Positions 27,401-64,000 are shown, counted from the stretch's first letter. The stretch is 64,000 nucleotides of DNA from Candidatus Multivoradales bacterium (GCA_965248925.1 CBDFLE010000006.1:1600001-1664000), one strand, 5' to 3'. Notes: a model not told the origin generated them from the letters alone. A program made the numbers and translations.

Positions 27401-28619
27401 CAGCCACCGCGACCGCGTGCAGAGCGGCTTCCTGAGCGGCGAGCTGGAAGTGGTCGTCGCCACCATCGCCTTCGGCATGGGTATAGACAAAGCTAATGTG
27501 CGCACCGTCATCCACACCGCCTTGCCCGGCAGCCTGGAGTCTTACTATCAGGAAATCGGCCGCGCTGGCCGCGACGGTCTACCCTCCCGCGCCGCCCTAC
27601 TGTGGGGCTATAGCGACCGCCGCACGCACCAGTTCTTTTTTGATCGCGATTACCCCGAGGTGGCGGTTCTGCAAGGCTTACTCGGCGCCCTCGGCCAGGC
27701 CACCCTCGGCCGCGAGGCGCTGGCCGTCCGCAGCGGCCTCGGCGAGGACACCTTCGAGCGCGCCTTGGAGAAGTTGTGGATCCACGGCGGGGTCGAAATA
27801 ACTACCGAGGACAGCGTCCGGCGTAGCAACAGCACCCGTTCCGGCGCCAGCTGGCAGCTAGCCTACGAGGAGCAACGGCAGCAAAAACTGGCTCAATTGG
27901 GCCAGATCACCCGCTTCGCCCAAGCCCGCCAATGCCGCATGCTGGTGTTGGTGCGCCACTTTGGCGATCAAGAAGACAGCGGCGAGCGCTGTGACGTTTG
28001 TGACCACTGCGCGCCGGAGAACTGCCAGGCGCTGGCCTTTCGCCCGCCCACCGGCACCGAGGTCGGCGCGATGGAGCGCATCTTGGCCTCCCTGCGCCAG
28101 CGTGACAGCCAAGGAACAGCCCAGCTGTTTCGCGCCAGCTGTGAACCCCGAGGTCTCGACCGGCGCACTTTCGACACCCTGCTCGCCGGTCTGGTGCGAG
28201 CCGAGCTGGTGGCAGTCAGCGAAGAGTCCTTCAACAAGGACGGCCGCACCATCCACTTCCAACGCGCCTCCCTGACCGCCGACGGCTACCGCGATCTACC
28301 GATGCTCGGCGCACGGGTGCGGATGGTCGACGAGGTGCCGTCCAGCGGTCGATCCAAACGCCGCCAGCGACCCTCCAAGGCGGCGGCAGACCTCGCCGCC
28401 AAAGCTCCCACGCAGTTGGTGGCCAAGCTCGAGCACTGGCGCAAGGGCGAGTCGCGGCAGCGCGGTGTGCCAGCTTTCAGAATCCTCCGCCAAGCGACCC
28501 TGCGAGCCATTGCCGCCGCGCGGCCTAGCGATCAGCAACAACTGGGGGCGGTGCGTGGCGTCGGTCCCGCCTTGCTGCAACGCTATGGCGATGAGCTGCT
28601 GCGCTTGCTGCGCCCATGA
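24468..28619 (+). CDS. DNA topoisomerase III - RecQ helicase - HRDC fusion
   Basis: [45 protein letters not shown]; Pro-rich linker; [53 protein letters not shown], Zn motif [10 protein letters not shown]-terminal HRDC; one 1383-aa ORF. Confidence 0.95.
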
Positions 28620-41764: not shown

Positions 41765-44643
41765 GTGCAATATCGCCCATCCAAGCCACAAGCTCCCCTG
41801 TCCGAATTCGATCGTTACTGCCTGACCTTGCGTCTGGCGGCGCCGATAGTCCTGCCCTTTGAGCATGGCGGCGTGCTGCGTGGCTTGCTGTCGCGGGCGC
41901 TGAGCCAGCACCAACTGCCGGACGGACTGATCCTCTTTGCCGCCGAGTCGGGGCGGGTTCACTTCCGCGCCGGCGATCGCTATCGCTGGGTGGTCACTCT
42001 GGTGGGCGAGGCCCGTGGCCAGGCGGAGACACTGCTGGCGGGTATCGCCGCGGTGGGTGGCCGGGTCGACAAGGGGCCGGCACCGGTCTTGGGTGGTAAT
42101 TTCGTGCTCGAGGCCACCGACTTGCTGCCCGCCGTCGATCTCGACGCCGAGTTGGCCCAGCTCGGCGAGCGAGACGAGATCGTGCTGCTGCTGCGCTCGC
42201 CCCTCTGCCTGCCGCGGCCAAAGACTCCCCAGGGCGCACGAGGCGGCATCTTCGACCAACACTGCTTCCCGGCCGCGGCTTTCTTGGATCGACTTTGGCG
42301 CCGCCGCTTCTTCCTCCAGCACAGCCGCTATCCGCGGCCCGAAGAGCGGTCGACCCGGGCCGCGGTAGGAGAGGGTGCGACGGCCCGACCCCACCACTTG
42401 CTGGCGGTTGATCTGCCGGTTCGGGGCACCGGTGAGCACAAGCCTTCTTACAACCTTGCAGGGGTGCGCGGCCAAGTGGTCTTCGGCGGGCTGAGCGAGG
42501 AAGAGCGCTCAGGCCTGGTCGCCGGGATGTTCCTGCACCTCGGCAAGAGCGTTAACTTTGGCTTTGGCCGCTACACCCTCGAGGGCACCCTCGACCATGG
42601 CGACAAGCATTTTCTACCCAGCACCTCGCTGCTGGCTCACGCCGCCGACTCGGAGGTGCTCGAGGACGCCGTCGCCCATCTGCGCCAGAACCTGAAAACC
42701 AAGCATCAGCTGCCGGGCGATGAGGATGAGCCGATCCCCGGCCGGCTGATCGTCGATCTCTCGCGGCGGCTGCTCGACGGCAGCTACCAGCCCGGCCTGC
42801 TCAGCGGCTTCGTGCTGCCCAAGAAGGACGGCGGCGTGCGCCCTCTGGCGGTCCCCAGCGTGCGCGACCGGGTGGCGCAGCGGGCGGCGATCGAGGTCCT
42901 GGCACCGATCATCGATGGTTTGCTCGAGGATTCCTCCTTCGGCTACCGCCGGGGGTTTTCGCGGCAGGGCGCGGCGCGGGCCATAGAACGGGCCTATGCC
43001 GAGGGCTACCGCTATGTCCTCGACGCGGACATCCACGCCTTCTTCGATCAGGTCGATTGGTCGCTGCTCTTCGCCAAGCTCGAAGCGCTCTTCCCCCAGG
43101 AGCCGCTGGTGGAGCTGCTGCGGCAGTGGATCCAAGCGCCGGTGATCTTCGAGGGTCGGCGCATTCGCCGGCAACGGGGCCTGCCCCAAGGCAGCCCCAT
43201 CTCCCCTCTGCTGGCCAATCTCTATCTTGACCAGCTCGACGAGGCGTTGATCGACCAGGGCTTCAGGCTGGTGCGTTTTGCCGACGATTTCGTCGTCTTG
43301 ACCAAGGATCTCGACCGGGCACGAGCCGCCAAGCTCGCCACCGAGCGGGTGCTGCGAGAGCTGCGCCTGTCGCTCAACCAAGACGAGACCGCCATTCGTG
43401 CCATCGACGACGGCTTCAGCTACCTCGGCTATCTCTTCGTCCGCTCGATGGTGATCGAGAAACGCTCATCGTCGAGTGCCGACGGTTCGGCAGCTGAAGT
43501 GTCCCTCGACGCTGACGACGTGCCGGCTGGATCGTGGCTTGCCGGGGTGTCCCTGCGACGAATCGAGGAGCTGCTCTCCGGGCGTCGCGGGCCCAAGTCG
43601 GTGGCCGGGTTCGAACGAGTTCCTCTGGCCACCGGCGCCGCCCTCGACGCCGGCCGTTGGCCCCTCTATGTGGTGGGGCATGACACCCGCTTGTTCTTGC
43701 GGCGACGAACCGTGGTGCTGAAGCGCCCGGAACAGGAGCCCGCCGAGCTACCCATCGAGGCGCTTTCCCACGTCGTCTTTTGGGGCCGGGTGCGGGCGAC
43801 GGTACCCGTCTTGCGCGGCCTCGCACGGGCCGGTGTGCCGGCCTACTTCTGCCAGGTCGACGGCACCCTCGAAGCGGTCTTTGGTCCCTATGAAGAAAAG
43901 TGGCCGAATTGGCTGGCGCAGGCCCGCGCCGCCGACAACCCGGAGCTCTGCCTGCGTTTTGCCATGGCCACCATCGAAGCGCGGTTGCGCAACTTGCGGT
44001 CATGGCGGTGCGCTTTGGCTGGGGCGGCGGTTCGGCGCTCGCCGCTCAGCTGCGCCAGCTGGCGCGGGAAACTGTCAACAAGCAAAGCCTCGACTCGGTC
44101 CGTGGCCTTGAGGGTCGCGGCATGGCTTTGGTATTTGGAGCATTGGCGGATGCGCTCGACTCCGAGTGGGGTTTCACCGGTCGTCACCGCCGACCGCCGC
44201 CGGATCCGGTCAACGCGATGCTCTCCTTCGGCTACAGCTTGCTTTACAACCACACTGCCACGGCCTTGACCGAGGCTGGCCTCAGTCCGCGGATCGGCTT
44301 GATGCACGAACCCCGCGGCGCCCATCTCGCCTTGGCATCCGATCTGATGGAAGAAGTCCGCCACCTGGTCGAGTCGTTGGTCTGGACATTGATCCGCCGC
44401 CGGCAGGTCAAGCCGACAGATTTTCGCCCGTCGGCAGATGGCTACTACCCGGCGCTGCTGACCCAGGAGGCGCGGCGGATGTTTCTCGACGCCTTCGAGC
44501 GCCGGATGCTGACCCAGCTGACCCCGGAAAAGGGCGAAGAACCGATCAGCTACCGCCAGCTGCTGGTGCGCCAAGCCAGGCAGGTCAGGGAGCTGGTGAG
44601 CGGGCGTCAAGACAGCTATCATCCTCTGGTGATCCGTGGCTAG
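41765..44643 (+). CDS. cas1: Cas6-RT-Cas1 fusion, frameshifted at about 43995
   Basis: Cas6 G-rich loop LHLGKSVNFGFGRY; RT PKKDGGVRPLAVP, DADIHAFFD, GLPQGSPISPLLANLYL, RFADD; Cas1 N-terminus in ORF 41765, with catalytic part (GLEG, PPPDPVNAMLSFGY, GLMH, LASDLMEE) in the frame of ORF 43900-44643. Confidence 0.92.
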
Positions 44644-58527: not shown

Positions 58528-58550
58528 TGATCGACGGCAGGGCAACGCTT

Positions 58551-58613
58551 CATCACCAACTGATACTCATCGCCGCGCCGCTTCCAGCCGGAGAGCTGCT
58601 CGAACCCTGAGCC
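58551..58613 (-). pseudogene. Internally deleted duplicate of the antitoxin at 59350-59592
   Basis: CATCACCAACTGATACTCATCGCCGCGCCGCTTCCAGCCGGAGA is near-identical to 59446-59489, then skips about 41 bp to GCTGCTCGAACCCTGAGCC. Confidence 0.7.
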
Positions 58614-58910: not shown

Positions 58911-59372
58911 CTAATCGAAAGTCTCTAGGATCTCAGCCGGCGCTTGCTCCGGCGACTCGAAGGGATTCACCACCCGCAGCTGACCGAAGAGCTGGCCGTG
59001 GTTGAGATCCTCGGTCAGCAGCACCTGGCAATCGCAGATCTGGGCGGCCGCGATGATCAGCGCATCCCACCACGAAAGGGAGTGGCGCTCGTACTGAACC
59101 CAAGCTCGTTCCATGACCGCAAGATCGATCGGCAGGGCTCGCCAAGAGGTGAGGTCGCGAATCAACTGCTGGGCCTGCCCGGCATCCATCCCAGGCTTCA
59201 GCTTGTGGGTGAGGGTGACGTAAAGTTCCTGCAACACCTGATAGCTAAGATGCCCCGAACGTTGGCGCCAAAGAAGGCTGAGCCAGTCGGCGGCCCTCGG
59301 CTGCTTGGCAGGCTCGCTGGAATCATGGCGATAGACCAAGACGTTGGTGTCAACGAAGACTGGCACGGTCAT
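58911..59372 (-). CDS. PIN-domain toxin
   Basis: VFVDTNVLVY, SYQVLQELY, LSWWDALIIAAA..LLTEDL.HGQ..VVNPF. Confidence 0.92.
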   Translation of the reverse strand: MTVPVFVDTNVLVYRHDSSEPAKQPRAADWLSLLWRQRSGHLSYQVLQELYVTLTHKLKPGMDAGQAQQLIRDLTSWRALPIDLAVMERAWVQYERHSLSWWDALIIAAAQICDCQVLLTEDLNHGQLFGQLRVVNPFESPEQAPAEILETFD

Positions 59373-59592
59373 GGAGAGACTCCCGAGTCGGGTAGCGAAC
59401 TTCTGGCCGTTTCAACCCGACGGGCTCCGCGGATAGGCAGCGATCCATCGCCAACTGATACTCGTCGCCGCGCCGCATCCAGCCGGAGATTCGCTCACTC
59501 AGCCATCGCGAGACACTGCGATCATCCTCAGCAGCTCGAACTCTGAGCCACAGAGCAACTTCCTCTGGCAATGTGATGGTGACGTTCTTCAT
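59350..59592 (-). CDS. CopG/RHH antitoxin
   Basis: MKNVTITLPEEVALWLRVRAAEDDRSVSRWL..YPTRESLHDR. Confidence 0.85.
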   Translation of the reverse strand: MKNVTITLPEEVALWLRVRAAEDDRSVSRWLSERISGWMRRGDEYQLAMDRCLSAEPVGLKRPEVRYPTRESLHDRASLR

Positions 59593-59598
59593 CACAAA

Positions 59599-59627
59599 AA
59601 ATTAGTGCAACACGAGTTCCGTGTCAA
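59599..59627 (-). promoter_or_regulatory. Promoter of the PIN TA operon
   Basis: Minus strand TTGACA-17-TAATTT with CAC..GTG dyads, a few nt before the start codon. Confidence 0.55.
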
Positions 59628-59651
59628 GATAAGTTACAAAAGAAACTCGCC

Positions 59652-59727
59652 GACGCCTCCGGCGTCTTGCTGGCTCCGCCAGCAGGGCCGCTCCGCGACC
59701 CCGCGCTCCGCGCCTGGGCTACCGCCC
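59652..59727 (-). repeat. Tandem hairpins downstream of DGR VR1
   Basis: Sense strand: GGGC-GGTA-GCCC, GCGC-GGA-GCGC, GGGTCGC-GGA-GCGGCCC, TGCTGGC-GGA-GCCAGCA, GACGCC-GGA-GGCGTC. Confidence 0.85.
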
Positions 59728-60624
59728 TGAGCGCAGACCCTGACCTAGAGCAAGGCGGAAGCCCAAGAAGTCGTAGCGGAGCGACGGGTGCCAGTAGTAG
59801 CGGTAAGCCGCACGCACGTAGCGAGCGTCGTAGTTCCACGCACCCCCGCGGATGACCCGGTTGGCGCCTTCTTCAGGGCCAGTTGGGTTTCTCTGCTCAA
59901 CCGACTCGTAGCCGCCATACCAGTCGTGGCACCATTCCCAGACATTGCCAAGCGTGTCGTAGAGCCCCCAGGGGTTAGCCTCCTTCTCAGCCACCAGCCG
60001 AGTCCCCGCCCGGTGGTGGGGATGTTGCTTCTCCGGCCAGTTTGAAGAATCTTCACCCTCCGTGAGATCAAAGTCGACGCCACTGTTGCCGCCATACCAA
60101 CCGATATCATGGAGTAGCGGAGCATCGTTCGCACCGACGATTTCCAGGTCGCCGGCGTAGGTCGCGGTCTCAGTACCGGCGCGGCAAGCGTGCTCCCACT
60201 CTGCTTCGCTGGGCAAACGAAGCTCTAGTGCCGAGACTCTCCGGTTGAGAACTTGCAAGAACTCCTGGCAATCTTGCCAGCTCACCTGTTCTACCGGCCG
60301 CTGGAGCGATACAAAGCGGCTCGGATTTTCGCCGTCCATGACCGCTAGCCAAAGTGCCTGCGTACAGGGGGTGTCGGCCAGCCAGAATCCCGCGGTCAGG
60401 GTGACTCGATGCCGAATTTCGTCGTCATCGCGGCCTTGTTCCTCCTCTGGCGAGCCCATCCAGAATCTACCGGGCCGAATCCACCGTAGACGTTGCTCCA
60501 CCCCACCTATTTCAAAAACCACAAAAACCCCGTACCGATCCTCGCCCCAGGCTGTGGCCCAGCTAGGCGGGTTCCCAGAAGAGAGTGGGTGGTCCAGGAA
60601 ATCAGCCATGGAATTGGGGATCAA
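59719..60624 (-). CDS. DGR target 1: stand-alone FGE-sulfatase (CLec-fold) protein
   Basis: FWMGSP, RLPSEAEWEHACRAG, NPWGLYDTLGNVWEWC, RVIRGGAW, GFRL; C-terminal VR. Confidence 0.93.
   Translation of the reverse strand: MIPNSMADFLDHPLSSGNPPSWATAWGEDRYGVFVVFEIGGVEQRLRWIRPGRFWMGSPEEEQGRDDDEIRHRVTLTAGFWLADTPCTQALWLAVMDGENPSRFVSLQRPVEQVSWQDCQEFLQVLNRRVSALELRLPSEAEWEHACRAGTETATYAGDLEIVGANDAPLLHDIGWYGGNSGVDFDLTEGEDSSNWPEKQHPHHRAGTRLVAEKEANPWGLYDTLGNVWEWCHDWYGGYESVEQRNPTGPEEGANRVIRGGAWNYDARYVRAAYRYYWHPSLRYDFLGFRLALGQGLRSGR
59745..59870 (-). repeat. DGR variable repeat VR1
   Basis: 126 bp; 11 differences from TR, all at TR adenines. Confidence 0.95.
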
Positions 60625-60771
60625 GAATCAGCCGCCGGTGAGCTTTCGCGGCTGCTGCTGCTGCCCTACTAACACACCGGCGGCCGTCACCATGTTTGCT
60701 GCCCACATAGCAAGGGTAAGCAGACTGGACGGCGGCCTGGTCAGTGGCGGGCACTGCGGCCCGCGTCTGCG

Positions 60772-60897
60772 CTAGAGCAAGGCGGAAGCCCAAGTTGTCG
60801 TTGCGGTTCGACGGGTGCCTGTAGTTGCGGTAAGCCGCACGCACGTTGCGTGCGTTGTTGTTCCACGCACCCCCGCGGATGACCCGGTTGGCGCCTT
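60772..60897 (-). repeat. DGR template repeat (TR)
   Basis: 126 bp with nine AAC codons (GANRVIRGGAWNNNARNVRAAYRNYRHPSNRNDNLGFRLAL), intergenic just downstream of the RT. Confidence 0.95.
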
Positions 60898-60929
60898 TTT
60901 GGCCGCGCCCGAGTTGGCAATCATATCGC

Positions 60930-61961
60930 CTAGGCATCAATGCTACCTCGCTGGACGAGTTCTTCGCGGCGCCAGGCTCGCGCCTCGGCATGCGCAGTCA
61001 CGGCATAGACAGAGGCATAGCCGGCCTGCAACTGCTGACCGTCGATCAGACCGGCAAGATAAGCGGTCTCGAAACGTCGCCTGGCAGTGGCATAGCGCCG
61101 CCGACGGCGGCGGGATAGCAGCAGCCGGTCGCCGAAGATCCGAAAGCCGAGCAGCGGCAGACCGCGGCAGCTTGGTTGGACCTGCCAGTGTGGCTTGATC
61201 GTCAGGTGCAGAGCCTGATCTGCATGTGCCACGGCCTGCTGAGCCGCCGCCCGCACAACGGCTGGGCTGTTCCCCCAGATCGCCACATCGTCCATGTATC
61301 GCACCATCGCAACACCTTGCCCCTCCAACAGAAGGCGATCGAGGCTTGCCAAGTAGAGGTTGGCGAAGTGCTGCGAAGTCAGCGCGCCGATGGGCAACCC
61401 TCGAAGCCCTTCTCTGGATCCTTGGTCAGTCGCCGGAGATAGATAGCTGGCGATGATCCGGTCGATCAAGTGCAGCGTTGCCGCACCCTTGATACGCCGC
61501 CTGAGCTGGGAGCGCAAGATAGCATGATCGATACTGGCAAAGTAGGCTCGCACGTCGAGCTTGACGAACCAACCATAGCGAGCCGTATGACACTGCGCCC
61601 GCTTTACAGCTGCCAGCGTACCCTTGCCCAGCCGGCAGGCAAATGTATCGTCCACCAGCAGTCGTTCGAGTACCGGGCCTACCCGGGCCATGAGCGCATG
61701 GTGAAGCACTCGCTCGCGAAAACAAGGCGCCTGGATAACTCGCCGCTTGGGATCATGAATGGTGAACGAACGCCTCGATCCGACCCGGACCCGTTGCTCT
61801 AGTATTTCGCGCCCGAGACGTGCCAGCTCTGACAGAAGATTCGCCTCGAAGGCCCGAACCTCCGGCTGCTGGCGCTTGCCCTTGGCGGCACGCCAAAACG
61901 CTGCACCGAGGTGTTCTAGCGAGGCAACATCCTCTAGTTGCACCAGCGCCCGCTTAGTCAT
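60930..61961 (-). CDS. DGR reverse transcriptase
   Basis: DPKRRVIQAPCFRERVLHHAL, FACRLGKG, KLDVRAYFASIDH, GLPIGALTSQHFANLYL (DGR-type GxxxSQ), RYMDD; ATG 61961 after GGAGG. Confidence 0.95.
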   Translation of the reverse strand: MTKRALVQLEDVASLEHLGAAFWRAAKGKRQQPEVRAFEANLLSELARLGREILEQRVRVGSRRSFTIHDPKRRVIQAPCFRERVLHHALMARVGPVLERLLVDDTFACRLGKGTLAAVKRAQCHTARYGWFVKLDVRAYFASIDHAILRSQLRRRIKGAATLHLIDRIIASYLSPATDQGSREGLRGLPIGALTSQHFANLYLASLDRLLLEGQGVAMVRYMDDVAIWGNSPAVVRAAAQQAVAHADQALHLTIKPHWQVQPSCRGLPLLGFRIFGDRLLLSRRRRRRYATARRRFETAYLAGLIDGQQLQAGYASVYAVTAHAEARAWRREELVQRGSIDA

Positions 61962-62430
61962 GCCGCCCCTCCTGGTCCGCGGCTGAATTCCAGGCGGCAC
62001 GCAGAGCCTCCACGAACGCGGCACCGTATTTCTCAGCCCGTTTGGCGCCCACTCCTGCCAATGCTTCCAGCTCACTGGGGGTCTGCATTCGCTGGCGCAC
62101 CATGGCAGCCAACTGCGCATTAGTGAAGACAGAATAGGGTGGTACGCCGTCTCGCTGCGCAAGCTCCTTACGGAGCTTTCTCAGCTCGGCAAAGACAGTG
62201 AAATCTGCGCTCGACAACACTTCTCTATAGTCGATCTTCCCTTTTCTGATCGCCGGAATTGCTGCTGAACTCTCCTGATAATTGATGCATAACGCCCAGA
62301 AAGCAGCCCCATCGCCCACTACTAGATGGCGCTTGACCGACAGCACCCGATGGCTGCCGAGAAAGGCATTCAGCTCCGCCTCGGCGGTATCGGGAGCGAG
62401 CGCCGGCACCCCGAAGAATTTCATCTTCAT
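61954..62430 (-). CDS. HRDC-domain DGR accessory protein
   Basis: ELNAFLGSHRVLSV..FWALCINY; KIDYREVLS..FAELRKLRKELAQRDGVPPYSVFTNAQLAAM..GVGAKRAEKYG; overlaps both the target 2 stop and the RT start. Confidence 0.88.
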   Translation of the reverse strand: MKMKFFGVPALAPDTAEAELNAFLGSHRVLSVKRHLVVGDGAAFWALCINYQESSAAIPAIRKGKIDYREVLSSADFTVFAELRKLRKELAQRDGVPPYSVFTNAQLAAMVRQRMQTPSELEALAGVGAKRAEKYGAAFVEALRAAWNSAADQEGRHD

Positions 62431-64000
62431 TTTTCCGCGGCCTCCGGCCGCGAAGGGTCGCGAAACGTACTCGCCCCTGGAATCTCTGCATCCGGAGGGC
62501 GCTCCGCGCCCGCGGGCTCCGCCCGCTCTGCTTGCGGCTCCGCCGCCTTGAGCGCACCCTGACCTAGAGCAAGGCGGAAGCCCAAGTAGCCGCTGCGGAG
62601 CGACGGGAGCCTGAAGCGGCGGTAAGCCGCACGCACGCCGCGTGCGAAGTCGTACCACGCACCCCCGCGGATGACCCGGCCGGCGCCTTCTCGTGGAACT
62701 CCGTAGCTAGCGCTCCAATGATCCTGACACCACTCTTCGACATTCCCTAACATGTCGAACAGTCCCCAGGGATTCGGAGGCTTCTCAGCAACTGGATGGG
62801 TCTCTCCCCCGCTATTGTGGTGGTACCAGGCGACTTTCTCGATTTCTGGTGCTCTACCTTCCTCATCGATTGTCAGCCCACCCTGGTAGGTTGCCGTCTC
62901 GGTGCCCGCGCGACAGGCGTACTCCCACTCGACTTCCAGAGGAAAGCGACATTCGAGGCCGGGATTCTGTTCGTGCAGCGTCTTGAAGAAGCTGTCGCAA
63001 TCTTCCCAGCTGATCTTCTCTACGGGGCGGTCGTCCGCGGGGAAGTTGCTTGGATTGTTGCCCATAACAACTTGCCACAGACGTTGGGTGCAGGGGGTAT
63101 CGGCCAACCAGAACCCGCGCCGGATCACTTCGAGATGGCGGGGCCCCTCATCGTCCCAACGACCGGGCTCATCTTCGGGAGACCCCATCCAATAGCGCCC
63201 TGGCGGAATCCAGCGCAGGCGTTGACTGACTCCCTTGACTTCGAATGAAGCCCACAGACCGAAGCGATCCCGGCCCATGGCACTCGCCCAAGGGGGACGG
63301 GTGACCTGGTGGAGGGTGGCCTCGGTGCGATCGGTGCGGAGGATCACAGCCGGTGCCGAAGGCAGAAGAATCTCAGTGGACTCTGAGAGCAGCACCGGCA
63401 CCGGTACGGCCTCGGGCTCGGCGCCCCCGACCACGCGGTCGACACTGTCAACCGCCGTCAAGAAGCTGCCAGGGGGAACCGTTCTGAGAGCCGGCGCAAA
63501 GCGAATCGACTGACAGTAGTGAAAGACCTGCCAGCGTTGCAGGCGACCCTGAGAATCACTAGGAGGAATCCGATCCGAACCTTCAGAAGTCGAGGCTTCG
63601 GCATCCCCCGTCGCCCTCCAGGCACGCCAGAGGTAGGGACGTAGCGATTCGTTCTGCCACAGGGAACTCGGATGCCGGTCGCGGAGCGCCCGGCCGGCGA
63701 AAGCACCTACCGCGTCGACTACCTCTTCGTCGGTGGCCCCGCCACCGTCGACGGTCTCAGCCACCCGGCGCCACAGCAAGTGGGCAGCACCGATCTCCGC
63801 CTCGCTGAGGGTGCCTGGCGGCAGCTCGGCTTCGCTGTCGAAGGCCAGGACCTCATCGAGCCAAATCTCCTTGGCCTTGCCTGCCCGCCACGCCCGCATA
63901 GTCTGCACCACGGCTGTCTTGAGGCGCGGCGCCAGGCGGCGAAACTTCTGCTGTAGCCGGGTTCTGAGCGGCCGCGCGAGGTCTGCTGAATCGGCCAGCC
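62427..64000 (-). CDS. DGR target 2: multidomain protein with C-terminal FGE-sulfatase (CLec) domain; N-terminus outside the window
   Basis: YWMGSP, EWEYACRAG, NPWGLFDMLGNVEEWC, RVIRGGAW, GFRL; the frame stays open from 63911 to the window end. Confidence 0.9.
   Translation of the reverse strand, partial: LADSADLARPLRTRLQQKFRRLAPRLKTAVVQTMRAWRAGKAKEIWLDEVLAFDSEAELPPGTLSEAEIGAAHLLWRRVAETVDGGGATDEEVVDAVGAFAGRALRDRHPSSLWQNESLRPYLWRAWRATGDAEASTSEGSDRIPPSDSQGRLQRWQVFHYCQSIRFAPALRTVPPGSFLTAVDSVDRVVGGAEPEAVPVPVLLSESTEILLPSAPAVILRTDRTEATLHQVTRPPWASAMGRDRFGLWASFEVKGVSQRLRWIPPGRYWMGSPEDEPGRWDDEGPRHLEVIRRGFWLADTPCTQRLWQVVMGNNPSNFPADDRPVEKISWEDCDSFFKTLHEQNPGLECRFPLEVEWEYACRAGTETATYQGGLTIDEEGRAPEIEKVAWYHHNSGGETHPVAEKPPNPWGLFDMLGNVEEWCQDHWSASYGVPREGAGRVIRGGAWYDFARGVRAAYRRFRLPSLRSGYLGFRLALGQGALKAAEPQAERAEPAGAERPPDAEIPGASTFRDPSRPEAAEK
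62436..62546 (-). repeat. Tandem GGA-triloop hairpins downstream of DGR VR2
   Basis: Sense strand: GCGGC-GGA-GCCGC, GCGGGC-GGA-GCCCGC, GGGCGC-GGA-GCGCCC, CGCGGCC-GGA-GGCCGCG. Confidence 0.85.
62564..62689 (-). repeat. DGR variable repeat VR2
   Basis: 126 bp; 17 differences from TR, all at TR adenines. Confidence 0.95.

Follow-up and report, generated by a model that had tools for sequence, protein, structure and literature searches.

Within a 64,000-nucleotide stretch of the genome of Candidatus Multivoradales bacterium (GCA_965248925.1, CBDFLE010000006.1:1600001-1664000), hereafter the window, we analyzed a diversity-generating retroelement (DGR) that encodes an HRDC-domain protein next to its reverse transcriptase (RT). 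The window corresponds to G000:C6:1600001-1664000 of a genome of ~8 Mb that is 96.9% complete, and positions given without a prefix are window positions. The element belongs to a predicted minus-strand operon in which a trypsin-like protease is followed by a MoxR-like ATPase, a long target protein (target 2), the HRDC protein, the RT, the template repeat (TR) and a short target protein (target 1); a third target is encoded 185 kb away. To our knowledge, DGRs are the only natural machines for targeted protein hypermutation in prokaryotes. The locus as a whole is best explained as an intact HRDC-type DGR that serves three targets from one template, by a mechanism modelled on that of the Bordetella phage DGR, and we put the probability of this reading at about 0.9. 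It is a genuine DGR embedded in a MoxR/protease conflict-type operon, with nothing new in kind; the arrays of hairpins with GGA loops, the covarying RNA that follows the TR, the covariation between this RNA and the flanks of the variable repeats (VRs) and the model of a domain resembling von Willebrand factor type A (vWA) are modest additions that include clade-specific cis elements.

The case for a DGR rests in part on the relationship between the TR and the VRs. A repeat search of the window recovered a single family of direct repeats, with three copies in the same register (59740-59873, 60767-60900 and 62559-62692), for which MAFFT alignment and a gap-free count set a 126-nt core; in the TR, this core consists of 28 A, 43 C, 37 G and 18 T. 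VR1 departs from this sequence at 11 sites and VR2 at 17, all of them TR adenines, whereas none of the 98 non-adenine positions differs in either repeat. The same counts had been obtained by hand in an earlier note on this DNA, made from the sequence by a model, and the computed alignment reproduced them without a single mismatch of the kind that would speak against the DGR reading. If substitutions were random over the 126 positions, the hypergeometric chance of all of them hitting adenines would be 1e-8 for VR1 and 5e-14 for VR2; when the core is stretched by 3 nt in the 5' direction, one more A-site change is added in VR1 and two more in VR2. The earlier note recognized two targets and suggested that the genome be searched with the TR for remote ones. 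Such a search of the 8-Mb genome identified a third repeat, VR3 (C6:1847039-1847164), with 15 differences from the TR, again all at adenines and none at the 98 other positions, so that the number of targets is three; no other TR-like sites were found in the genome at E<1e-30. The TR has the layout classic for DGRs, with 9 AAC codons: adenines occupy the first, second and third codon positions 11, 13 and 2 times, respectively, and none of the A-containing codons can mutate to a stop; up to 17 codons are variable in each VR, which by computation allows ~1.2e14 peptides per VR.

The repeats diverge sharply at their ends. After the common ...CTCTAG, VR1 continues as GTCAGGGTCTGCGCTCA and VR2 as GTCAGGGTGCGCTCA, the two sharing GTCAGGGT, whereas the TR continues as CGCAGACGCGG; thus, 23 identical GC-rich nucleotides are followed by GTCAGG in the VRs and by CGCAGA in the TR. 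The alignment yields the same bases on which the earlier note based its distinction between the initiation of mutagenic homing site (IMH) of the VRs and the related IMH* of the TR, and these labels agree with the definition of Wu et al. 2018 (PMC5758913).

Among proteins with solved structures, the best relative of the RT is 8ub7_A, a 328-aa 'Reverse transcriptase' (E 8e-39) that we take to be the DGR enzyme of the Bordetella phage; RTs of group II introns reach 2.5e-12 at best, and together with the retron RTs they are at 1e-12 or worse. The RT (Pfam RVT_1, 6.5e-17) retains an IGxxxSQ motif (IGALTSQ), which presumably is the mark of the DGR lineage in place of the usual RT motif, as well as YMDD, and both motifs align with those of 8ub7. 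No NCBIfam model was reached by the RT, the top one being a group II intron model with 93 bits against a cut-off of 300. In a tree of 35 RTs, rooted by three non-DGR RTs of the same genome (support 100/100), the RT falls inside a clade of 14 rows supported at 99/99, apart from the non-DGR RTs of the genome. The hosts of this clade are Pseudomonadota, Myxococcota, Gemmatimonadota, Planctomycetota, Acidobacteriota and one unclassified bacterial metagenome-assembled genome, and given that the nearest RT is only 54-55% identical, the distribution is phylogenetically patchy. TR/VR pairs biased to adenine are present beside the RT in all 13 clade relatives, and among 44 related loci, 28 have TR/VR pairs with at least 75-80% of the differences at A. 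The gene order is conserved across the clade: a long target with a VR, an HRDC protein of ~160 aa, the RT, the TR and a short lectin-only target with a VR; in most of the related loci, the TR starts 30-50 nt past the RT.

The genome encodes other RTs that are distinct from the one studied here. Two additional DGRs, each with the TR upstream of the RT, have RTs that form a separate clade: one on C6 (G000:C6:4814692-4816879; TR 4815904-4816028, VR 4814692-4814816), with 11 differences, all at A, and one on C5 (G000:C5:145049-147281; TR 146306-146423, VR 145049-145166), with 13 of the 14 differences at A. Within the window, an RT-like frame at 42632-43297 (+), 29% identical to the DGR RT and contained in an 838-aa open frame, forms a group with two further non-DGR RTs, one at C6:~4.122 Mb and one at C6:~308.9 kb that is duplicated at ~287.3 kb; there is no TR/VR pair near this frame, which possibly is a group II intron or some other retroelement.

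The HRDC gene (Pfam HRDC, 9.5e-20) overlaps both the stop of target 2 and the start of the RT gene, and its orthologues occupy the same position in the relatives. In an alignment of 17 orthologues, W45, D67, R87, F102 and G126 are invariant, and an N-terminal domain of ~65 aa that is not matched by any Pfam family is common to all of them. No gene of the Avd type (PF05635) was detected in the 96.9%-complete genome, consistent with HRDC as an alternative to Avd, which the earlier note listed as described for DGRs. By analogy with the Bordetella phage DGR, the HRDC protein would work with the RT in complementary DNA (cDNA) synthesis. The window has another HRDC domain (72 bits) at 28413-28607 (+), which is part of a 1433-aa open frame and has no relationship to the DGR accessory gene.

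The genes of the operon are tightly packed (Table 1). The stop codon of target 2 and the start codon of the HRDC gene share the ATGA at 62430-62427, as read directly from the sequence, the end of the HRDC gene and the start of the RT gene overlap by 8 nt (61961-61954), the RT stop at 60930 lies 33 nt ahead of the TR, and target 1 starts at 60609, ~160 nt past the TR. All open reading frames (ORFs) of the operon are intact, and the frames together with the sequence bear out the order target 2-HRDC-RT-TR-target 1 and the overlaps that the earlier note described. Indeed, all the components of its DGR interpretation, namely RT homology, adenine-only differences, lectin-fold targets and HRDC, hold.

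Table 1. Features of the DGR and its targets in the window
Feature	Position	Strand	Description
GC hairpin array after VR1	59652..59713	-	C-GGA-G loops; 3' untranslated region of target 1
Target 1	59719..60609	-	296-aa stand-alone FGE/C-type-lectin-fold protein; ATG at 60609, stop included; Pfam FGE-sulfatase 1.1e-42
VR1	59745..59870	-	126-nt variable repeat, 3' end of target 1
Post-TR structured RNA	60610..60771	-	holds CTGACC (60744-60739) and the long stem (60685-60672 with 60643-60630)
TR	60772..60897	-	126-nt core, 28 adenines, 9 AAC codons
DGR reverse transcriptase	60930..61961	-	343 aa from ATG at 61961; Pfam RVT_1
Accessory gene	61954..62430	-	158 aa: ~65-aa conserved N-terminal domain without Pfam match, then HRDC domain
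GC hairpin array after VR2	62436..62546	-	four hairpins, C-GGA-G loops, within coding tail of target 2
VR2	62564..62689	-	126-nt variable repeat near 3' end of target 2
Target 2	62427..64000 (in window)	-	C-terminal 523 codons; full gene reaches G000:C6:1665081

The stretch that separates the TR from target 1 appears to encode a conserved RNA structure. In an alignment of 13 loci, a covarying stem of 13+2 bp encloses an invariant GUAG and CGAAAG; 90.8% of the cells are paired, compared with 41-49% when the partners are slid, 12 of the 15 pairs have changed on both sides, and none of 500 shuffles reached the observed values. A search of 59000-64000 against Rfam at E<=1 gave only one chance-level sRNA match. 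The stem is located in the position of the 'spacer' of the Bordetella phage DGR, which lies 3' of the TR, recruits the RT and primes cDNA synthesis (PMC6182149, PMC12875486).

The same RNA contains a motif that is complementary to the sequence immediately following the VRs. The TR/VR homology stops at one point in each of the 24 VRs from 14 relatives: after a shared ...GAG, the VR reads (G/T)TC where the TR reads C(T/G)C. The longest complement of the post-TR RNA to the VR flank starts at the last shared G in 20 of 27 VRs. The complementary motif, NNNGA(C/A)C, is found ~29-37 nt past the TR (58 nt in Accumulibacter) and is represented here by CTGACC. The complementary run averages 6.0 nt within a locus as against 4.7 nt across loci, and the motif and the flank covary: the observed variants are CCTGACC/GGTCAGG, TCCTCGACC/GGTCGAGGA, TTTGACC/GGTCAAA, TTGGACC/GGTCCAA, TGGACC/GGTCCA, CGCGAAC/GTTCGCG and TGAAC/GTTCA. 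The discriminating base is a C in the RNA opposite a G in the VR or an A in the RNA opposite a T in the VR (L012, L015, L019, Planctomycetota), the TR always having a mismatching C; where VR and TR can be told apart, at one or two positions, the motif agrees with the VR in 25 of 27 cases and with the TR in none. The complementarity fits the published model in which the RNA primer docks the cDNA on its target: in the phage element, the RNA primer pairs better with the IMH than with the IMH*, and docking of the RNA-cDNA on the VR was proposed on this basis (Naorem et al. 2017, PMC5703328). The docking idea itself is that of Naorem et al.; the addition here is comparative support in a distant, Avd-less clade.

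Several caveats apply to a role of the motif in docking. Its register was picked to maximize pairing with the VR, so the contrast of 5.8 vs 0.8 bp is in part there by construction; the three loci with the T/A variant may represent one evolutionary event; and VR3 pairs with the motif over only 4 bp. Furthermore, beyond position +6, the complement of the motif is TR-like in L013, L017 and L021, an intramolecular helix between the TR and the spacer is present as well, and over 10 nt, pairing with the TR equals or exceeds pairing with the VR in some loci. The complementarity might therefore have no part in homing and instead reflect merely the intramolecular TR-spacer helix that sets the priming nucleotide, together with the shared ancestry of IMH and IMH*; in the phage element, seven TR-spacer base pairs indeed surround the priming site (PMC6182149, PMC5703328). 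This is an alternative to be taken seriously, at rather less than even odds. What stands against it is that the motif follows the VR where the two repeats differ and changes along with it, and that the same asymmetry in the phage element is the one from which docking was proposed.

All three targets are predicted to carry the VR in a domain of the FGE/C-type-lectin fold, as the earlier note proposed for those in the window. The FGE-sulfatase family is matched in targets 1 and 2 and across the three targets at 1e-36 to 1e-42 (Pfam), and by fold, the VR-bearing domain is most similar to Treponema denticola variable protein 1 (TvpA, 2y3c; E 9e-17, and 1e-44 by profile). Target 1 consists of the lectin fold alone. 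Target 2 comprises 884 aa when counted from the first ATG after the MoxR gene, the length of the protein on record, and 908 aa as the longest ORF. Target 3, which carries VR3 at its end, is an 803-codon ORF with Mrr_cat, Pkinase and FGE-sulfatase domains and is surrounded by housekeeping genes. Reading of the translations by eye revealed no N-terminal hydrophobic signal in the targets.

Just beyond base 64000, where the earlier note advised looking for genes of this kind, there is indeed a gene for a MoxR-like ATPase, with the trypsin-like protease gene upstream of it. The ATPase (322 aa; AAA_5, 2.4e-12) matches the bpMoxR model at 9e-5, which is under the cut-off of that model, and its gene overlaps the longest target 2 ORF. 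The protease (521 aa) has a Trypsin_2/Trypsin domain at its N-terminus, and its best NCBIfam and PADLOC matches are Avs1b-type proteases. In 8 of 11 relatives, a gene of the AAA_5/AAA type precedes the long target, and two Accumulibacter loci code for a TIR protein ahead of this gene, whereas one locus codes for a trypsin-like protease there. Target 2 probably serves as the variable sensor subunit in a conflict system of the MoxR/vWA-like/protease type.

The vWA-like part of this system would be the N-terminal region of target 2. Its 640 residues are not matched by any Pfam family and define a family of at least 50 proteins, all of which end in an FGE domain; structure models were built from an alignment of 39 sequences. 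The model of the whole protein has a predicted local distance difference test score (pLDDT) of 81.7, and residues 72-510 alone reach a pLDDT of 89.2 and a predicted template modelling score of 0.84. As Foldseek retrieved only FGE folds with the whole model, the N-terminus was modelled separately. None of the Foldseek matches of this model is at E<=0.001, and the top four are the NorD vWA domain in NorQ(MoxR)-NorD complexes (E 7e-3 to 2e-2, probability 0.87-0.98). An exhaustive structural aligner also puts vWA domains first, with TEM8 at Z 9.6 and CMG2 at Z 9.4 (root-mean-square deviation 3.0 over 117-119 residues) and the NorD vWA at Z 8.4 with 17% identity; the matching part is residues 100-228, and the helical part of the model resembles MalT/STAND modules (Z 9.1). 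Pointing the other way, HPRT folds tie at Z 8.4, and the vWA scores of 8.4-9.6 are little above the background of 7-8 stated for the tool; Pfam detects no vWA in target 2, the profile of the target 2 family finds none among the sequences of the Protein Data Bank, and a single weak VWA_CoxE match (E 0.006) was obtained among the 39 family members. The MIDAS-like DxSxS motif is degenerate in target 2 (DRSLR). On balance, we lean slightly towards a cryptic vWA domain in the modelled N-terminus, and if it is there, these loci would count among the MoxR-vWA ternary systems and not form a variant lacking the vWA.

Gene context and the work of Doré et al. 2024 suggest a role of the targets as antigen sensors, or in defence more generally. 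A different possibility is that the diversified proteins tune signalling or cell-cell recognition, for example, through kinase pathways. Target 3 is a fusion with a Ser/Thr kinase, Vallota-Eastman 2020 (PMC7517822) proposed regulatory tuning as a role of cyanobacterial DGRs, and the defence proposal of Doré et al. 2024 (PMC10907252) is, by the authors' own statement, untested, no defence phenotype having been reported for any such locus. PADLOC gave no matches for targets 1 and 2, and the protease matches no Pfam family other than trypsin at E<=0.001. Set against the signalling reading are the effector-type partners, that is, the Avs1b-like protease, the Mrr domain of target 3 and the TIR proteins in the Accumulibacter relatives, as well as the genes resembling toxin-antitoxin modules (PIN/RHH) that flank the locus; the kinase of target 3 also resembles the PD-T4-6/MADS6 defence kinases, although this similarity is generic among kinases. 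With the effector-type context in view, we consider signalling or recognition in place of a sensor function to be rather unlikely.

The absence of non-adenine drift, a sequence-based argument that the earlier note also made, suggests that retrohoming is recent. The lectin-fold DNA adjoining the VRs is 71-75% identical between targets 1 and 2, whereas not one of the 294 non-adenine positions of the three VRs differs from the TR; it follows that the three VRs were overwritten from this TR after the genes diverged. The VRs could nevertheless have been written in the past by a cassette that is now unexpressed or deprived of a host factor, in other words, a recently silenced relic. The public runs that contain the locus, four runs from one sample of one study, available as Logan contigs, show one allele for each VR and no alternative letters, and so give no direct sign of current activity; contigs, however, drop rare variants and cannot reveal minority alleles, the unitigs break at the repeat edges, and one run leaves 62596-62702 uncovered. 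Doré et al. 2024 (PMC10907252) likewise report loci in which the VRs match the TR at all non-A sites and yet are invariant. On the other hand, the RT with its catalytic motifs, the HRDC gene, the TR and the three targets are all intact, and the contrast between the VRs and the adjoining DNA also counts against a relic; we therefore regard a relic as improbable, and the element may still be active.

The second feature shared by the VR flanks is a tandem array of GC hairpins that follows every VR. The loop is always GGA and is closed by a C-G pair (once by G-C). VR1 is followed by three perfect hairpins with stems of 4-7 bp and an imperfect one, VR2 by four hairpins and VR3 by three; in targets 2 and 3, the hairpins are in the reading frame and encode AEP/AER repeats. 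The whole genome, both strands included, contains 993 perfect GGA-loop hairpins with stems of at least 4 bp, and clusters of three or more occur only in the three VR flanks, with none after the TR. In the relatives, the VR flanks contain 28 hairpins in 5,510 nt (5.08 per kb) against a same-strand background of 29 in 290,056 nt (0.10 per kb), and none were found in 28 TR flanks or in the antisense orientation. At least one hairpin accompanies 14 of the 23 VRs within the 14-row clade but only 1 of the 15 outside it; conversely, 9 of the 23 clade VRs have no perfect GGA hairpin, which weighs against the arrays as marks of the targets. That the arrays are ordinary terminators or genome-wide repetitive extragenic palindrome-like repeats is very improbable: a T-run follows the last hairpin after target 1 and the site scores as terminator-like (59664-59648), but the arrays lie in frame in two of the targets, are not clustered anywhere else in 8 Mb, are strand-specific and absent after the TRs of the relatives, and vary in their stems while the loop is constant.

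Pairing of the GGA loops with GUCC repeats of the post-TR RNA was considered as well and dropped because no such repeats are present in the loci of Accumulibacter, where the arrays are best. In the last hairpin of the VR2 array (62436-62452, -), GGAGG falls in and beside the loop, 11 nt ahead of the HRDC start, and this hairpin could double as the ribosome-binding site of the HRDC gene. A GC hairpin of 20 nt has exactly two copies in the genome, one lying upstream of the protease gene (L005:6031-6050) and one ~140 nt after VR3 (G000:C6 near 1846890); this may be due to chance or may be a trace of common origin.

The hairpins of DGRs described previously have a different form. In phage DGRs, they are single, with stems of 7-10 bp and a 4-nt GRNA loop (Guo 2011, PMC3240598), and MyDGR (2019) searches for this single GRNA-loop form; Wu et al. 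2018 (PMC5758913) report GC inverted repeats for 127 DGRs out of 372. Full-text searches and passages of Guo 2011, Wu et al. 2018, MyDGR 2019 and Doré et al. 2024, supplements aside, yielded no mention of tandem arrays or of GGA loops after VRs, but only of single inverted repeats with a GRNA loop.

The orientation of the targets relative to replication can be gleaned from the GC skew, which on C6 stays negative over the first ~2.7 Mb and has its cumulative minimum at that point. On the usual reading of the skew, the minus-strand targets at 1.66 and 1.85 Mb thus run in the direction of replication, and the sense strand is the lagging-strand template. Co-directional orientation was favoured in a reconstituted DGR (PMC12875486), and the orientation here is weakly consistent with the sense-strand specificity of the hairpins; it is a weak argument because most bacterial genes are co-directional with replication.

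These observations can be assembled into a scheme that follows the Bordetella phage model. The operon transcript would contain the TR and ~160 nt of structured RNA on its 3' side; the RT and the HRDC protein would copy the TR into cDNA, with random bases inserted opposite adenines; and in each target, the cDNA would take the place of the 126-nt VR at the 3' end, rewriting up to 17 codons in the ligand-binding face of the FGE/C-type-lectin fold. The targets would be marked in cis by the VR flank (G|GTC...), complementary to the post-TR RNA motif, and by the three or four GGA hairpins on the sense strand. Because such marks are portable, the gene 185 kb away, which combines the Mrr nuclease, the Ser/Thr kinase and the lectin fold, could be diversified in trans. 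The way in which mutated cDNA reaches the target is described as still unknown (PMC12875486). We tentatively suggest, while considering it less than an even bet, that in this HRDC-type clade the choice of targets depends on two portable marks, a VR flank of 4-9 nt complementary to a single-stranded motif (NNNGA[C/A]C) ~30 nt 3' of the TR, through which the RNA joined to the cDNA would serve as a splint, docking the cDNA on the sense strand of the VR and rejecting the TR, and an array of three or four GGA-loop hairpins that would hold this strand open on the lagging-strand template, and that the long targets in addition contain a cryptic vWA domain.

In its architecture, the locus most closely resembles the MoxR-associated 'clade 5' DGRs of Doré et al. 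2024 (PNAS, PMC10907252), in particular the 'clade 5A' type, as well as DGR 8 and DGR 9 of Thiohalocapsa PB-PSB1. The shared features are a long target whose N-terminal extension is 'domain-less' and whose gene directly follows that of a MoxR-like ATPase, another, short target that consists of the lectin domain only, an adjacent trypsin-like peptidase, in which no VMAP domain was recognised, kinase-containing and remote (trans) targets, and several DGRs per genome. The likeness to clade 5A is one of architecture; those authors name Accumulibacter among the hosts of related DGRs, and Accumulibacter is represented in the 14-row clade of the RT studied here. Neither HRDC nor hairpins occur in the main text of Doré et al. 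2024 (zero occurrences each), and the vWA-like N-terminal model, the GGA arrays and the post-TR RNA are not part of its main-text sections on these loci; figures S10 and S11 and the datasets of the supporting information may cover some of this. The locus can also be compared with the MoxR-vWA 'ternary' conflict systems (Kaur et al. 2020, eLife, PMC7159879) and with the NorQ-NorD pair: here, too, an AAA_5/MoxR-like ATPase is found beside a protein predicted to resemble vWA domains, including that of NorD, along with a peptidase effector. The differences are that the vWA domain here is derived from a model with moderate Z scores, that its MIDAS-like motif is degenerate, and that VMAP is not among the Pfam matches, the presence of VMAP models in the Pfam copy used not having been checked.

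Another parallel is the DGR of Treponema denticola, the targets of which we take to be lipoproteins and include TvpA, to which the VR-bearing domain is closest in structure and by profile. This element likewise has an HRDC accessory gene ('Architecture C' of Wu et al. 2018, PMC5758913), lectin-fold targets of the FGE type and remote targets more than 100 kb away; in the survey of Wu et al., HRDC DGRs account for 14 of 372, with 11 different architectures, and 10 DGRs have targets located more than 100 kb away. In contrast to the Treponema targets, those described here are fused to or encoded beside ATPase, protease, kinase and nuclease modules.

With the DGR of Bordetella phage BPP-1, the element shares the adenine-specific transfer from TR to VR and a homologous RT, assuming that 8ub7 is indeed the phage enzyme. 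The differences are that HRDC takes the place of Avd, that the TR follows the RT gene here but precedes it in the phage, and that three cellular targets are served instead of one phage tail-fibre gene. Both elements have a GC-rich, IMH-like repeat end, hairpins after the VR and not after the TR, and a structured RNA 3' of the TR whose primer region favours pairing with the VR flank over pairing with the TR flank (PMC3240598, PMC5703328, PMC6182149); the three or four tandem hairpins with stems of 4-7 bp and a 3-nt GGA loop contrast with the one hairpin of the phage, with a stem of 7-10 bp and a 4-nt GRNA loop.

The neighbourhood of the DGR island includes genes resembling PIN/RHH toxin-antitoxin modules on both sides. 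Directly downstream of target 1 (58911-59595, -), a ribbon-helix-helix gene with a weak RHH_5 match and a PIN-domain gene form a VapBC-like pair, and another PIN gene is located upstream of the protease (L005:6130-6585). A 61-nt stretch is present twice, 895 nt apart and at 85% identity (58541-58601 and 59436-59496), which suggests a second, degenerate copy. Farther out, a 2-oxoglutarate dehydrogenase E1 gene (L005:9562-12807, -, corresponding to G000:C6:1671562-1674807) contains an unusual insertion, a cyclic-nucleotide-binding domain (PF00027, 2.8e-17) between the N-terminal motif and the E1 domain.

The marks on the targets of this DGR stand out against the whole genome, are conserved across phyla within the clade and covary with the RNA of the element itself, making the RNA-docking model and a role of the hairpins that follow the VRs testable in an Avd-less system. 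If the joint reading of the two marks and the cryptic vWA domain is correct, it would provide the first comparative, cross-phylum support for the docking model of Naorem et al. 2017, which was proposed from one phage element, and a rule for predicting the remote targets of Avd-less DGRs, or for re-aiming these elements, and it would bring the loci within the classical MoxR-vWA ternary systems. The remote nuclease-kinase target, together with the vWA-like model, sharpens the picture of DGR-diversified sensors that are tied to effectors of the cell-suicide type.

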